DNA of 31,107 nt from a virus (Duplodnaviria; Heunggongvirae; Uroviricota; Caudoviricetes): the IMG/VR virus record IMGVR_UViG_2713896798_000014; one strand, given 5' to 3'. This document shows, piece after piece, positions 4,274 through 26,831 of this stretch (positions are counted from its first letter, which is position 1; each line of letters opens with the position of its first letter). The notes beneath the pieces are model-generated. The model was not told where the DNA came from. It was given only the letters and a program-made list of their open reading frames with translations, and searched no databases. Both the position numbers and the translations under genes were made by a program.

Positions 4274-4632
4274 TTCTTATTCTCCGGTGCTTTCGGCATT
4301 ACTGCCCAGTGAGTGATATTGACCTTTTCAAGGTCCCCGACCTGAAATGTCCACTGCCATTCTCCGGTTTCTTTTTGTCCCCAGGTGTACCAGAGAGAAC
4401 GCCAGCCAATTAGCCAGCCTTCTCCGTTAGCATCAAATAACAGAACACTTTCATTTGCTGGCGGCAGTTCAGCTGACACTGGTATTATTTTGTTTTCCAG
4501 TGCCGCACATTTAGCTTCAAGCGCATCGAATTTACGTACCAGGTACTCAGCATTTGTTTCATTCACTTTCAGATCTCGCGGTACACATTTCCCGCGAAGA
4601 AACCCTTCCATTTCGAAAACATTCATGCGCAT
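4270..4632 (-). CDS. yfdS: DUF551-like phage protein, YfdS-like
   Basis: 120 aa, same length as K-12 YfdS as recalled; C-terminal W...HWAVMPKAPE pattern; GGAG 8 nt upstream of ATG 4632. Confidence 0.55.
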   Translation of the reverse strand: MRMNVFEMEGFLRGKCVPRDLKVNETNAEYLVRKFDALEAKCAALENKIIPVSAELPPANESVLLFDANGEGWLIGWRSLWYTWGQKETGEWQWTFQVGDLEKVNITHWAVMPKAPENKK

Positions 4633-5159
4633 TTGCGTAACTCCGATAACTCGTTAAAACGTTCCATAAACATCCCGTAGGCATGGCCTGGCGACAGTGG
4701 AATAACTTTGAACATCTCTGTTGCCGGGATACCTTCCAGAACAGGCCAGAAAGAGCCATCATCAAGCCCGAGATCACGGCGTTCGGTTGCCAGCATAATG
4801 AGATCGGCATATTTCACTGGCGTGCTCATAACAGGAGGTAACCCGTATTTCTCACGGATTACGGCGTCTATTTTTTCTTCCATCCGTTTATAGTCAGGAA
4901 GAAGTCGTTTCAGTGGCGCGGGGATGTCCTGGCAATATGCTTCTGTTGCATCATGCATTAACGCTTCAAAAGCAAATTCTTGCGGCACCAGCTGGCTGCA
5001 AAGCACCGCATGCTGGGCGACACTGTAGAAGTGTGAAAGATGTCCTGCAAAGCGACAGATATTTGAAAGGGAAACTGCGATATCGTTAATATCGATGTTG
5101 TCTTTATTTATCCTGTCATAATAAAAATGCTTCCCGGAAAAAGTTTTAATAAATGACAT
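4623..5159 (-). CDS. yfdR: HD-domain phosphohydrolase (5'-deoxynucleotidase-like), YfdR-like
   Basis: H..HD metal-binding pattern (SVAQHAV...ALMHDATEAY); start set at ATG 5159 (GGAG + 6 nt) giving 178 aa, matching K-12 YfdR length as recalled. Confidence 0.7.
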   Translation of the reverse strand: MSFIKTFSGKHFYYDRINKDNIDINDIAVSLSNICRFAGHLSHFYSVAQHAVLCSQLVPQEFAFEALMHDATEAYCQDIPAPLKRLLPDYKRMEEKIDAVIREKYGLPPVMSTPVKYADLIMLATERRDLGLDDGSFWPVLEGIPATEMFKVIPLSPGHAYGMFMERFNELSELRKCA

Positions 5160-15701: not shown

Positions 15702-16415
15702 ATGGCTGTTGTCTGTTCAGTTATCATGGTTTGCTCCCCAATTAATATTTTTCTTGAAAAGGATACGTTGTCACTTAAGCCAGGCTCAGTTGTTCTGGCC
15801 ACCAAATGCATCAGGGAGCTTTTCCTTATGCATTATGGCAAAGTTAAAATTGTCGATATAAGCGAATCCGTCGTAAGTCAATATCTGGAAAGTCAGCATA
15901 AGCTGACGAGGACTCGTCTGACTGACATTCCGCTTTACCTGTTGCTGGAACCCAACAATCCTGCGTTGGCTGCGGCTTTAATTACCAGCCAGGGATTTTC
16001 CGGAGAGGCCACGGATATGTTTCTTATGATGGCCTGCCTGTCTCTGTTTGAAACAGATGAACGGATGTCATTGTTTTTAAGTGGATGTTTATCCAGCATA
16101 AGTGCCAAAGTCAGGGCGATAATTCAGACAGATATATCAGCAAGCTGGACGCTTGGTGCGATTGCTCTACAGTTGCATATGAGTGAGAGTTTGTTAAAGA
16201 CAAAACTGAAAAATGAAGGGGGCATGTTCAGTCGCTTGTTGCTGGAAGAGCGGATGCGTGTTGCTGTAAATATGTTATGTTCCCGGCATGGATATGGACA
16301 GGCTATAGCAGAAAAATGCGGTTATTCAAGCAGGTCCTACTTTATTTCTGTATTTCACCGCTATTATGGCTTCCCGCCAGACAGATATGTATCCAGGCAA
16401 GGGCTTGATTATTGA
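15702..16415 (+). CDS. AraC/XylS-family transcriptional regulator
   Basis: C-terminal double HTH (WTLGAIALQLHMSESLLKTKLK...GYSSRSYFISVFHRYYGFPPDRY); AT-rich; start uncertain (15702 or 15828). Confidence 0.75.
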   Translation: MAVVCSVIMVCSPINIFLEKDTLSLKPGSVVLATKCIRELFLMHYGKVKIVDISESVVSQYLESQHKLTRTRLTDIPLYLLLEPNNPALAAALITSQGFSGEATDMFLMMACLSLFETDERMSLFLSGCLSSISAKVRAIIQTDISASWTLGAIALQLHMSESLLKTKLKNEGGMFSRLLLEERMRVAVNMLCSRHGYGQAIAEKCGYSSRSYFISVFHRYYGFPPDRYVSRQGLDY

Positions 16416-22957: not shown

Positions 22958-23323
22958 ATGGCTGAGCTTCGTACACTCCAGAGCAGAATCAAAACTCTGA
23001 ACACCCGACGGGTGAATATTCTGAAGGGGGAACAGCGTCGTGTCAGTGGCAGTGCACGTGTTTCCCTCAAGCGTCATATCTGGCTGAGGGATGCCGGACA
23101 GTGCTGTCTCTGTGGTCGTGTGGTTGACCTCTGTGACAGTGAACTCGATCACCGAATTGCACTTCAGTTCGGTGGTGGTAATGAGGAGACGAATCTCTGG
23201 ACGCTCTGTACCGAATGCCATCGACAAAAGTCTGCTCGTGAAGCGGCGGGTGGTATGCCGGACCCGACGCTGCCGGAGGTGTCCGGAGGTCATGGCAGGG
23301 CAGACGATATCATCGGACTGTGA
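22958..23323 (+). CDS. HNH endonuclease
   Basis: C..C...H...C.C.H pattern (CCLCGRVVDLCDSELDHRIALQFGGGNEETNLWTLCTECHRQK). Confidence 0.8.
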   Translation: MAELRTLQSRIKTLNTRRVNILKGEQRRVSGSARVSLKRHIWLRDAGQCCLCGRVVDLCDSELDHRIALQFGGGNEETNLWTLCTECHRQKSAREAAGGMPDPTLPEVSGGHGRADDIIGL

Positions 23324-23331
23324 CCCGCCCC

Positions 23332-23383
23332 GGGGGGGGGATCATCCGGCGAAAAAAACGATCGCTCCGGACACCGCCCCCCC
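23332..23383. repeat. homopolymer tracts: G9 (23332-23340), A7 (23352-23358), C7 (23377-23383)
   Basis: Counted directly in the sequence, immediately after the HNH stop. Confidence 0.9.
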
Positions 23384-23569
23384 TCTCACGCAGAGAAAAA
23401 ATTCCCGTTTCAGGGCAGTTAACATGTTAACTGGCTGTCCGGGCATTTTTGCGGTTTTTATCTTTATTATTCAGTTTGTTGCGTGGGTAACCGGCTCATT
23501 TAAACCGTCTGGTCTGTTTCCTCCGGCTCTACAAAAATAATGTCCATCATTTTTAATGGACACTATCGT

Positions 23570-24217
23570 ATGAAACACCGGACCTGGATCACTGAAGCTT
23601 TACGTCTTCACTTTGAAGAACATTTACCCCGGGTTGTGGCCGGGCGTCGCCTGAGTGTACCAAAATCAACAGTTTGTAGTATGTTCGTGCGCTTTCGGAG
23701 AGCTGGCCTTTCGTGGCCTTTGCCCGCAGGCATGTCGGAGCAGGAACTTGATGCCTGCCTTTACGGACAATTTTCCACGGTACCAGTCGTACGTCCTGAA
23801 AGCACCGTTATATCCGAAGCCCCCGTGGTAAAAAAACGTCCCCGGCGGCCCAACTTCCCTTATGAGTTTAAAATCGCCTTAGTGGAGCAGTCACTACAGC
23901 CCGGAGCCTGTGTGGCGCAGATCGCCCGGGAAAACGGAATCAACGATAACCTGCTCTTCAACTGGCGCCATCAATACCGGAAAGGTGGCCTGCTGCCTTC
24001 CGGAAAAAATATGCCGGCACTGCTTCCCGTGACGTTAACGCCGGAGCCGGATAATAAAATCCCGGCCCCCGCACAGGAACCAGAGCAGATAAATACACCG
24101 TCCGACAGTCTGTGTTGTGAGCTGGTTCTGCCGGCCGGAACTCTCAGGCTTAAAGGTAAACTGACGCCGGCGTTATTACAGACACTTATCCGCGAAATAA
24201 AAGGGAGCAGCCACTGA
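23570..24217 (+). CDS. IS66-family accessory protein (orf1/TnpA-like, HTH)
   Basis: HTH segment ...CVAQIARENGINDNLLFNWRHQYRKG; start uncertain (23540 or 23570). Confidence 0.6.
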   Translation: MKHRTWITEALRLHFEEHLPRVVAGRRLSVPKSTVCSMFVRFRRAGLSWPLPAGMSEQELDACLYGQFSTVPVVRPESTVISEAPVVKKRPRRPNFPYEFKIALVEQSLQPGACVAQIARENGINDNLLFNWRHQYRKGGLLPSGKNMPALLPVTLTPEPDNKIPAPAQEPEQINTPSDSLCCELVLPAGTLRLKGKLTPALLQTLIREIKGSSH

Positions 24218-24564
24218 TGATATCTCTCCCTGCAGGTTCGCGTATCTGGCTGGTTGCAGGTATCACCGATATGCGAAATGGCTTTAACGGCCTGGCATCA
24301 AAAGTTCAGAACGTCCTGAAGGATGACCCGTTCTCCGGACACCTGTTCATCTTCCGCGGACGCCGGGGTGACCAGATAAAAGTGTTGTGGGCTGACAGTG
24401 ACGGACTGTGCCTCTTCACCAAACGCCTGGAGCGGGGCCGCTTCGTCTGGCCAGTCACCCGTGACGGCAAGGTGCACCTTACTCCGGCTCAGTTATCCAT
24501 GCTTCTTGAAGGTATCAACTGGAAGCACCCGAAACGAACGGAACGCGCTGGAATCCGCATATAA
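24217..24564 (+). CDS. IS66 Orf2 (TnpB-like) protein
   Basis: 115 aa; MISLPAGSRIWLVAGITDMRNGFNGLA...HLFIFRGRRGDQIKVLWAD typical of IS66 Orf2; ATGA coupling. Confidence 0.8.
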   Translation: MISLPAGSRIWLVAGITDMRNGFNGLASKVQNVLKDDPFSGHLFIFRGRRGDQIKVLWADSDGLCLFTKRLERGRFVWPVTRDGKVHLTPAQLSMLLEGINWKHPKRTERAGIRI

Positions 24565-24583
24565 CCCGTTGTAAAGTGAGGAT

Positions 24584-26155
24584 ATGGACACCTCACTTGC
24601 TCATGAGAACGCCCGCCTGCGGGCACTGTTGCAGACGCAACAGGACACCATCCGCCAGATGGCTGAATACAACCGCCTGCTCTCACAGCGGGTGGCGGCT
24701 TATGCTTCCGAAATCAACCGGCTGAAGGCGCTGGTTGCGAAACTGCAACGTATGCAGTTCGGTAAAAGCTCAGAAAAACTTCGTGCAAAAACCGAACGGC
24801 AGATACAGGAAGCACAGGAGCGAATCAGCGCACTTCAGGAAGAAATGGCGGAAACGCTGGGTGAGCAATATGACCCGGTACTGCCATCCGCCCTGCGCCA
24901 GTCTTCAGCCCGTAAACCGTTACCGGCCTCACTTCCCCGTGAAACCCGGGTTATCCGGCCGGAAGAGGAATGCTGTCCTGCCTGTGGTGGTGAACTCAGT
25001 TCTCTGGGATGTGATGTGTCAGAGCAACTGGAGCTTATCAGCAGCGCCTTTAAGGTTATCGAAACACAACGTCCGAAACAGGCCTGTTGCCGGTGCGACC
25101 ATATCGTGCAGGCACCAGTACCTTCAAAACCCATTGCACGCAGTTATGCCGGAGCGGGGCTTCTGGCCCATGTTGTCACCGGGAAATATGCAGACCATCT
25201 GCCGTTATACCGCCAGTCAGAAATATACCGTCGTCAGGGAGTGGAGCTGAGCCGTGCCACACTGGGGCGCTGGACAGGTGCTGTTGCTGAACTGCTGGAG
25301 CCGCTGTATGACGTCCTGCGCCAGTATGTGCTGATGCCCGGTAAAGTCCATGCTGATGATATCCCCGTCCCGGTCCAGGAGCCGGGCAGCGGTAAAACCC
25401 GGACAGCCCGGCTGTGGGTCTACGTCCGTGATGACCGTAACGCCGGTTCACAGATGCCCCCGGCGGTCTGGTTCGCGTACAGTCCGGACCGGAAAGGTAT
25501 CCATCCACAAAATCACCTGGCCGGTTACAGCGGTGTGCTTCAGGCCGATGCTTACGGTGGTTACCGGGCGTTATACGAATCCGGCAGAATAACGGAAGCC
25601 GCGTGTATGGCTCATGCCCGGAGAAAAATCCACGATGTGCATGCAAGAGCGCCCACCTACATCACCACGGAAGCCCTGCAGCGTATCGGTGAACTGTATG
25701 CCATCGAGGCAGAGGTCCGGGGCTGTTCAGCAGAACAGCGTCTGGCGGCAAGAAAAGCCAGAGCCGCGCCACTGATGCAGTCACTGTATGACTGGATACA
25801 GCAACAGATGAAAACACTGTCGCGTCACTCAGATACGGCAAAAGCGTTCGCATACCTGCTGAAACAGTGGGATGCACTGAACGTGTACTGCAGTAATGGC
25901 TGGGTGGAAATCGACAACAACATCGCAGAGAACGCCTTACGGGGAGTGGCCGTAGGCCGGAAAAACTGGATGTTCGCGGGTTCCGACAGCGGTGGTGAAC
26001 ATGCGGCGGTGTTGTACTCGCTGATCGGCACATGCCGTCTGAACAATGTGGAGCCAGAAAAGTGGCTGCGTTACGTCATTGAACATATCCAGGACTGGCC
26101 GGCAAACCGGGTACGCGATCTGTTGCCCTGGAAAGTTGATCTGAGCTCTCAGTAA
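24584..26155 (+). CDS. IS66-family transposase (TnpC)
   Basis: 523 aa; N-terminal leucine-zipper-like region, CxxC...CxxC zinc motif, conserved core typical of IS66 transposases. Confidence 0.85.
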
Positions 26156-26192
26156 ATATCAATACGGTTCTGACGAGTCGCTTACTTTTGTT

Positions 26193-26831
26193 ATGCCATT
26201 TACATTTTATTTGTCGTCCGAGAATCAATTGTCAATACAAGATGTTGAAGTTTTGCAAAACGCAGCCAGAGCGAATGATACAGGGAATATTATAATAGGA
26301 GACAGGCAGCTTTCTGTTCGTTATCAGAGTGCTATGGACGCTTTTATTGTTAATCCTGTTCAGGGGGAGCTGTATTCAGGTCTTAATAATACTGCTTTGG
26401 ATGATGTTCTCAGTCTGGCTGACGTTATTGAGAGTCGGTTGAATGGAGGAAGCTCATTTCTTGATGTATTCGACAGATATATGATACAAACAATGCAAAC
26501 CATGATGAATGGTAATGAGGGCGATCTTGAATCGTTAGCGACTCGATTATCTTCAAGTGCTTTTTCGGTTTCTCCTGAGGATATATCCTGTATACCGGAG
26601 GCATTGCAGTGTCCGATTACATTGGCAATTCCAGAGCGTGGTGTTTTTCTTAGAAACTCCGAGGAATCCTCTGTGTGTAGTTTATATGATGAAAATGCTC
26701 TCTCTCGTATAATTAATGATGGGGGGCATCATCCATTAAGTAGGGAGCCAATAACAGCATCAATGATTGTAAAGTCTGAAGATTGTATTTTTGACGCCTC
26801 AAAGGGAAACTTCATTATAAAAGATAGTTAA
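26193..26831 (+). CDS. nleG: NleG-family type III effector (U-box E3 ligase-like)
   Basis: 212 aa, AT-rich; C-terminal U-box-like CPITLAIPERGVFLRN...HPLSREPIT; start only 8 nt from the IS66 right end. Confidence 0.7.
   Translation: MPFTFYLSSENQLSIQDVEVLQNAARANDTGNIIIGDRQLSVRYQSAMDAFIVNPVQGELYSGLNNTALDDVLSLADVIESRLNGGSSFLDVFDRYMIQTMQTMMNGNEGDLESLATRLSSSAFSVSPEDISCIPEALQCPITLAIPERGVFLRNSEESSVCSLYDENALSRIINDGGHHPLSREPITASMIVKSEDCIFDASKGNFIIKDS

Follow-up and report, generated by a model that had tools for sequence, protein, structure and literature searches.

Downstream of an HNH endonuclease gene, and shortly before an IS66-family insertion element, the prophage DNA analyzed here (a stretch of 31,107 nt, referred to as the window) carries long runs of G, A, and C in close succession. 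An earlier note on this DNA had proposed that these runs are either remnants of a cos region or a length-variable site, which raises the question of what the interval is. We assign it, with a probability of about 0.88, to the cos site of an HK97-type, HNH-assisted packaging module of a BP-4795/Lys8385Vzw-like lambdoid prophage. The features of the interval are listed below, with the evidence for each in brackets.

22958-23323, + strand: HNH endonuclease gene, 121 aa, packaging-associated, preceding cos in this phage family (Pfam PF01844, E=7e-7; corresponds to BP-4795 ORF53)
23332-23340, + strand: G-tract, G9, with its 3' edge 44 nt before the top-strand cut (comparison among relatives)
23352-23358, + strand: A7, in the variable spacer from the G-tract to the cut, not a conserved element (variant counts)
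23369-23374, + strand: GGACAC motif just 5' of the overhang (conservation in the clade)
23375-23384, + strand: predicted cohesive end CGCCCCCCCT, a 10-nt 3' overhang with C7 as its core (match to the Lys8385Vzw ends)
23385-23407, + strand: predicted left genome end, CTCAC-GCAGAG-AAAAAA-TT-CCCG (alignment, diverse loci, left ends of Xp10 and Bcep176)
23418-23431, + strand: GTTAACATGTTAAC palindrome, first of four ATGTTAAC copies in the cos-to-TerS spacer (BP-4795 spacer)
23487-26185, + strand: ISCro1-like IS66-family element (Pfam; RefSeq annotation of identical copies)
23540-24217, 24217-24564, and 24584-26155, + strand: tnpA, tnpB, and tnpC, within the IS66-family element

Homopolymer tracts downstream of the HNH gene

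Direct reading and a run scan located G9 at 23332-23340, A7 at 23352-23358, and C7 at 23377-23383, all inside 52 nt, and the first base of the cluster lies 9 nt past the HNH stop codon (23321-23323). The tracts thus fall within 60 bp after the HNH gene, as the earlier note had it, and the open reading frame in front of them does encode an HNH endonuclease. From the stop codon onward, the order is TGA-CCCGCCCC-GGGGGGGGG-ATCATCCGGCG-AAAAAAA-CGATCGCTCCGGACACCG-CCCCCCC-TCTCACGCAGAGAAAAAATTCCCG. An additional A6 run (23396-23401), which lies beyond the interval considered in the earlier note, is better conserved than A7. The left end of the IS66-family element, described in that note as adjoining the tracts, starts at 23487, 97 nt past the end of that interval.

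The G+C content around the tracts is 72%, against 48.6% for the window as a whole. Although 16 runs of at least 7 nt occur in the 31,107-nt window, the run scan returned no other G run of at least 9 and no other C run of at least 7. We then compared the cluster with 200 first-order Markov simulations of the window. Three runs of at least 7 within 60 nt were never obtained (0/200), two such runs were seen in 13% of the simulations, and any G or C run of at least 9 in 9%. Because none of the 200 simulations gave such a cluster, the clustering of the tracts is real and not a product of chance.

Cut positions and the cohesive end

The HNH gene and the next 160 nt have matches in 94 phage records, most of them from phages that convert to Stx1a, Stx2a, or Stx2c, and every one of these matches ends at window position 23481-23486. 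Positions 23300-23486 are 100% identical to phage BP-4795, in which the HNH gene (ORF53) is followed by a 290-nt spacer and the genes for TerS, TerL, and the major capsid protein. The same cos is present in 1,237 of 5,426 complete E. coli genomes (23%), with up to 8 copies per genome, and many of these copies sit on Stx phages. Its closest counterparts are those of Lys8385Vzw, BP-4795, 2851, and 1717 (Marienburgvirus/Pankowvirus-type lambdoid siphophages), with the order HNH, cos, TerS, TerL.

Among these, Lys8385Vzw, an induced Stx1 phage, was classified by PhageTerm as a cos phage with 3' cohesive ends, with CGCCCCCCCT as the cos at the genome end (PMC7946995); these ends are a PhageTerm inference from reads and not the product of direct end sequencing, and the coordinates stated in that paper are garbled. 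The Lys8385Vzw record (MT225100) has ...CACCGCCCCCCCT at its right end and CTCACGCAGAG at its left end. It ends in ...CGATCGCTCCGGACACCGCCCCCCCT and begins with CTCACGCAGAGAAAAAATTCCCG, which match window positions 23359-23384 and 23385 onward exactly. Over longer ends (...GGGGGGGATCATCCGGCGAAAAAAACGATCGCTCCGGACACCGCCCCCCCT on the right, CTCACGCAGAGAAAAAATTCCCGTTTCAGGG... on the left), the record equals the window all the way from the HNH stop codon to the left genome end, cohesive end included, except that it has G7 where the window has G9. Since the genome ends of Lys8385Vzw are identical to the window, the cohesive end corresponds to 23375-23384, and C7 forms its core. The position of the top-strand cut (23384|23385) is thus shown, at the level of sequence, by identity to a phage whose ends have been mapped; the virion-end assignment for the window rests on this identity, as the prophage here is incapable of forming virions by itself. 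The bottom-strand nick is predicted at 23374|23375, which would give a stagger of 10 nt and the 3' overhang CGCCCCCCCT. The cos site of the BP-4795/Lys8385Vzw phage family is, in this respect, already published. As for the earlier note, its suggestion of a cos region is supported by the match to the Lys8385Vzw virion ends; the word remnant does not apply to the core, which is intact and, within 23300-23486, identical to that of BP-4795.

The sequence on both sides of the predicted cuts is conserved. Just before the overhang, GGACACC, GGAAACC, or TAGACC is kept across the clade. The 10-nt overhangs of HK97 (gac|CGCCGCCAAA), the window (ggacac|CGCCCCCCCT), and Bcep176 (tagac|CGCACGTTCC) all start with CGC directly after GAC(AC), which suggests a conserved context for the bottom-strand nick. 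On the other side, the left-end block GCAGAG-A6-TT-CCCG at +6 to +23 consists of near-invariant alignment columns and is the most conserved block of the region; the GCAGA/A-tract/CCC block was also found in 58 of 74 diverse TerL-linked loci and in the left ends of Xp10 and Bcep176. By analogy with HK97, its A6-TT-CCCG portion (+12 to +23, with the A-tract at +12 to +19 and CCCG at +20 to +23) is a candidate TerS site.

Two metagenomic viral contigs (L121 and L139) start exactly at the predicted left end, CTCAT.... This coincidence implies that contig termini in viromes can mark cos cuts in this terminase family. Many of a further series of metagenomic viral contigs (L233-L311) start at the CTCAT... 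left end or about 430-590 nt upstream of TerL. Two isolate contigs (L006 and L030) end in ...CTCTCA(C), 5-6 nt beyond the cut; we took these ends as assembly breaks and gave them no weight as evidence.

Three properties place the site in the HK97 type. It lies between the HNH and TerS genes, an order taken from intact relatives since TerS is deleted in the window; the virion ends carry a short 3' extension, as read through the identity with Lys8385Vzw; and the large terminase of the family belongs with HK97 gp2. The latter assignment was made with BP-4795 TerL, whose gene is absent from the window: this protein has the Pfam domains TerL_ATPase and TerL_nuclease and is 23% identical to HK97 gp2 over 458 aa (E=6e-12). 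HK97 itself has a 10-nt 3' overhang, its HNH protein gp74 stimulates cleavage, its TerS binds +15 to +29 (a C:G pair plus an A-tract), and its motor stalls at cos in a TerS-dependent manner (PMC11331095, PMC9410871). The HK97 record has ...GGGGGGGGGATCAAATC...TGACCGCCGCCAAA at its right end, and its left end holds CTAACCCGATTTTTTT. As in the phages studied here, its cos lies between the HNH gene and TerS, the overhang begins with CGC after GAC, and a block of CCCG plus an A/T-tract lies about 20 nt into the left end; moreover, GGGGGGGGGATCA occurs 42 nt before the right end, compared to 44 nt here, and the length of this G-run also varies among close relatives of HK97. The remaining DNA is not alignable, the order of A-tract and CCCG is reversed, and the cos-to-TerS spacer is 49 nt in HK97 compared to about 230 nt in BP-4795-type phages. 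The TerS of the latter is a Pfam Terminase_2 protein. BLASTP detected no significant similarity between this TerS and HK97 gp1 or between the HNH protein and gp74; we therefore rejected direct homology of the accessory proteins to those of HK97, leaving TerL as the only component with demonstrable homology.

Distant relatives, retrieved by means of BP-4795 TerL, lend independent support. Bcep176, a Burkholderia phage with a TerL that is 58% identical, has CGCACGTTCC at both ends of its deposited record (taken here at face value as genome ends) followed by CTCACGCGCAGAAAATTTTCCC, position-for-position equivalent to the window. Xp10 (TerL 48% identical) has a 9-nt 3' overhang, GGACAGTCT (PMC2248197), and its record ends in ...GGACAGTCT and starts with CCCATTCGCAGAAAAATTACCCG. 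Bcep176 and Xp10/Xop411 share with the window the TerL clade, a G5 run 43-45 nt before the right end, and a left end of the form C(T/C)CA..GC(G)CAGAAAA..CCC, and Xp10 has an HNH gene at its right end. They differ from it by their overhangs (CGCACGTTCC and the 9-nt GGACAGTCT), which contain no C homopolymer, by the shorter G-run, and by a compact layout with TerS about 45 nt past the cut. A lambda-type cos was rejected: lambda cos has a 12-nt 5' overhang, lacks an HNH partner, and shows no sequence similarity to the site, where no sequence resembling GGGCGGCGACCT (cosN) is found. The sole cosN match in the window (4331-4342, minus strand, 2 mismatches) is at chance level, as 87 of 100 shuffles give at least one.

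Position and length of the G-tract

The distance from the 3' edge of the G-run to the right genome end is 44 nt in the window and 42, 43, and 45 nt in HK97, Bcep176, and Xp10, respectively. The length of the run ranges from 5 to 13 (mode 7-8) in a set of 61 distinct E. coli-type sequences, in some cases on identical flanks, although some of these differences could stem from misread homopolymers in draft assemblies. Across the same 61 sequences, the distance from its 3' edge to GCAGAG stays within 48-52 nt; the changes in length extend on the side away from the cut and leave the downstream spacing intact. The distance to the cut is also kept when a holin gene, a tRNA module, or the gene for a different nuclease takes the upstream position. 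Close relatives of HK97 show the same pattern, with G-runs of 6-11 and a fixed 3' edge, and relatives at 50-77% TerL identity often have G5-8 followed by ...CGAAAGT...GGAAACCGC. In diverged IMG/VR relatives, with TerL 68-85% identical, the spacer sequence is unrecognizable, and the order of elements is G-run, spacer, GGACACC/GGAAACC, a C-rich overhang region, and GCAGAG-A6-CCC.

We also carried out a wider scan with one genome per species, in which loci were found through TerL and 74 were testable. Of these TerL-linked loci, 58 have a run of five or more G residues whose 3' edge falls 44-54 nt upstream of the GCAGA/A-T-tract/CCC motif; with the anchor displaced by 30-200 nt, the count was 0-2 of 74, and the probability expected from background was 0.006. 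The hosts are diverse Proteobacteria, among them Paraburkholderia, Pandoraea, Pseudomonas, Xanthomonas, Stenotrophomonas, Janthinobacterium, Enterobacter, and Oxalobacter. A G-run of at least 5 was undetected at the expected place in 16 of the 74 loci of the BP-4795 TerL clade and in 21 of 44 distant HK97-TerL relatives; the G-tract is thus common in HK97-type cos sites and not universal. As it is kept at a fixed distance from the cut even though the intervening sequence, TerS, and HNH are unrelated, the G-run is, as this comparison shows, a positioned component of cos, the length of which drifts by slippage on the cut-distal side.

The other two tracts behave differently. The C-run changes by substitution only and at constant length (GCGCCCCCT, GCCCCCCGT, or GCCCCCCCT), as expected for a run inside a fixed 10-nt overhang, and in distant relatives the overhang region is not a C homopolymer. 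The variants of A7 are TAAAAAA (30), AAAAAAA (14), A6 (5), A8 (3), TGAAAAA (3), and ATAAAAA (2), and A7 is missing from diverged relatives; being mostly substituted and absent at a distance, it is regarded as spacer. The suggestion of a length-variable site therefore stands for the G-run (5-13 in 61 close relatives), fails for the C-run, and hardly fits A7. Collectively, the comparison across relatives that the earlier note had called for found a G-tract of varying length within a packaging site, and neither invariant tracts nor a lack of similarity to such sites, the two outcomes that would have spoken against its reading.

Other explanations of the tracts were weighed against these data. A G-run of 5 to 13 between otherwise identical sequences is what a phase-variable contingency switch would produce, with slippage in G9 (and A7/C7) toggling a neighboring gene (HNH, TerS, or a small ORF), and homopolymer runs of G9 length are slippage-prone. 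Such a switch is nevertheless very improbable: the tract lies 9 nt past the HNH stop codon and about 290 nt before TerS, outside reading frames and promoter hexamers, no promoter-like or terminator-like site was found on the + strand between 22900 and 23600, the C-run never changes its length, and the G-run changes length in the direction away from the cut, with its spacing to the downstream elements preserved and its distance to the cut indifferent to the gene upstream. Equally improbable in our view is a G9:C7 hairpin in late mRNA or single-stranded DNA (a terminator, an RNA-stability element, or a cruciform), perhaps one that also involves the inverted repeat 23275-23288/23365-23378. When 23270-23400 is folded, the minimum-free-energy structure does pair the G-run with the C-run, and the 14-nt inverted repeat, 93% complementary, does flank the G-run, but the fold energy is ordinary for the composition (z = -0.86, with 38 of 200 shuffles as good), and relatives that keep the G-run have CGCACGTTCC, CCGCCGCCAAA, or GGACAGTCT in place of the C-run, so that the pairing is not conserved. 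An intrinsic terminator was rejected on the same fold energy, together with the lack of a T-tail and of any terminator-like site in the searched region. The inverted repeat, considered as a structural element or dimer-binding site, was likewise rejected, as its right arm varies (CTCCGG, CTTTGG, CCCCGG, CCCTGG) and its left arm does not compensate.

Insertions and junctions at the tracts might instead mark a recombination or transposition hot spot (an insertion target or a module boundary) with no packaging role. In PPompW prophages, the IS110-family element ISEc20 sits inside the G-run (...CTTTCGGGGGG, then the IS, then GGGGGATCATCC), one IMG/VR contig (L026) has a Q-tRNA module joined directly to the G-run, and the IS66-family element of the window is found 103 nt beyond the cut. 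Such events, however, are secondary and confined to particular lineages, they explain neither why the spacing between G-run and cut is conserved across Proteobacteria nor the identity with mapped virion ends, and a module boundary at the G-run is expected if a functional cos module starts there; we consider a hot spot only marginally less improbable than the switch or the hairpin. Least credible of all is chance low-complexity sequence in a G+C-rich intergenic spacer. Single runs of at least 7 are indeed common in the window, but the simulations yielded no comparable cluster, and the stretch is conserved in the 94 phage records and the 1,237 E. coli genomes; conservation and end mapping together refute a chance origin, within the reach of sequence analysis.

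The PPompW prophages deserve a separate description. In LC567822.1 (PPompW_132418), ISEc20 is inserted in the cos G-tract, the flanks of which at 1130-1150 and 2595-2612 correspond to window positions 23332-23340. In these prophages, the Q-tRNA module abuts the G-run, and there is no lysis cassette and no HNH gene. The contig L026 (...CTTTCGGGGGATCA) looks like the PPompW junction without ISEc20.

Returning to the cos reading, the identity with Lys8385Vzw makes DNA to the left of the cut (HNH, G9, and A7) the right end of the virion chromosome, with G9 and A7 within its last 53 nt, and DNA to the right (CTCACGCAGAGAAAAAATTCCCG...) the left end, from which packaging runs toward TerS. The rest of the scheme is drawn by analogy with HK97. 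TerS would bind the conserved A-tract/CCCG block at about +12 to +23, like HK97 TerS at +15 to +29; this position is an analogy, as TerS of BP-4795-type phages is not alignable with HK97 gp1. HNH and TerL would make the staggered nicks on either side of CGCCCCCCCT.

Within this scheme, the upstream G-tract may be a functional cos subsite that acts in termination, as cosQ does in lambda, a proposal that we regard as tentative and somewhat doubtful. The likeness to cosQ is one of position only, upstream of the nicking site and on the side that the motor reaches last (lambda references via PMC11331095, PMC7617512), and the conserved spacing of the G-tract suggests a comparable role in termination. 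The G-tract would be the final feature that the motor passes before the cut and could serve as a contact for TerL or the portal; alternatively, poly(dG).poly(dC) could act as a stiff, A-like segment that slows translocation. At about 43-45 bp before the cut, the tract would meet the motor as the nicking site reaches the nuclease. The tract goes along with the TerL family even though TerS and HNH are unrelated, which suggests that it is read by TerL or the portal and not by TerS or HNH. The G-tract would also be ancient, being common to the HK97, BP-4795/Stx, Burkholderia, Pseudomonas, and Xanthomonas phage clades, and would tolerate length changes on its distal side.

In HK97, only the downstream TerS site (+15 to +29) is defined, and the G-tract at about -43 may be the missing upstream termination element; the comparison thus offers a concrete, testable prediction for the HK97 packaging system. 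In the literature searched (including PMC11331095, PMC9410871, and PMC7617512), we found the downstream TerS site and the analogy to lambda cosQ, and no upstream G-tract. That HK97-type cos sites carry a conserved G-tract, tolerant of length changes and placed about 44 bp before the cut, therefore appears undescribed and is a modestly new observation.

The IS66-associated deletion and the orphaned cos site

The window is a lambdoid prophage. Upstream of the site, it encodes a CI-like repressor, Rha/Ash, a DnaD-like replication protein, a NinG-like protein, an AraC-family regulator, and a NanS-p-type esterase, followed by holin, lysozyme, Ant, Rz, a DUF3950 gene (minus strand), and the HNH endonuclease. 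Elements of the IS66 family carry tnpA, tnpB, and tnpC, have inverted repeats starting with GTAA, and generate an 8-bp target duplication. The copy in the window has the inverted repeats GTAACCGGCTC.../GTAAGCGACTC..., with GTAACCGGCTC... at 23487 and ...GAGTCGCTTAC ending at 26185. Its 8-bp flanks differ (TTGCGTGG compared to TTTTGTTA; window 23479-23494 and 26178-26193), so that a target duplication is lacking, a sign that the insertion was followed by a deletion or recombination.

The full layout is seen in E. coli SCPM-O-B-7615, where HNH, cos, TerS, TerL, and the head and tail genes up to the tail fiber are followed by IS66 copies and NleG, with about 25 kb between cos and the IS. The right flank of the IS in the window is identical to that of the copy beside nleG in this strain, and the window is therefore best read as having lost, by a deletion next to the IS, about 25 kb that begin 103 nt beyond the cut and run through TerS to the tail fibers. 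Downstream of the cut, 102 nt of phage sequence are retained; the terminase, head, and tail genes and the downstream part of the cos-to-TerS spacer are lost. Compared to Lys8385Vzw, the window thus has the IS66-family element from +103 on and lacks TerS, TerL, and all morphogenesis genes. The exact cos|IS junction of the window was found in none of the complete RefSeq E. coli genomes, and two near-matches carry the IS elsewhere.

By removing the packaging genes, the IS66-associated deletion orphaned the cos site. The annotation of the tract cluster is settled: it is the cut site for packaging in a defective prophage that carries effectors (NleG genes lie downstream), in which HNH and cos are retained and the terminase, head, and tail genes are gone. 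Use of such an orphan cos would be possible only if a co-resident phage of the same family acted in trans. It is plausible that orphan cos sites serve as substrates for this kind of packaging, which, if it occurs, would bear on the movement of defective prophages and their virulence cargo.

The spacer between cos and TerS has features of its own. The GTTAACATGTTAAC palindrome (23418-23431) is the only one of the four ATGTTAAC copies left in the window, as the remaining three lie beyond the IS junction. In diverged L100-type relatives, ATGTTAACAG appears to be the region of the TerS start codon, about 45 nt past the cut, and the E. coli-type spacer looks like an expansion of about 185 nt with duplicated 5' ends of TerS. 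The spacer of BP-4795 (4461-4656 of locus L001) also contains a 24-aa hydrophobic ORF, MLTGCPGIFAVFIFIIQFVAWKKC.

Elsewhere in the window, the AraC-family regulator gene (15702-16415) lies between the NinG-like gene and the NanS-p esterase gene, in the late-regulatory region; no stx genes were seen at this position. Directly after the IS is a gene for an NleG-family T3SS effector (26193-26831), followed by an ORF of 257 aa (26970-27743) with no Pfam match. A tyrosine integrase gene is located at 28508-29605 on the minus strand, and this region may be the end of the prophage or an adjacent element.
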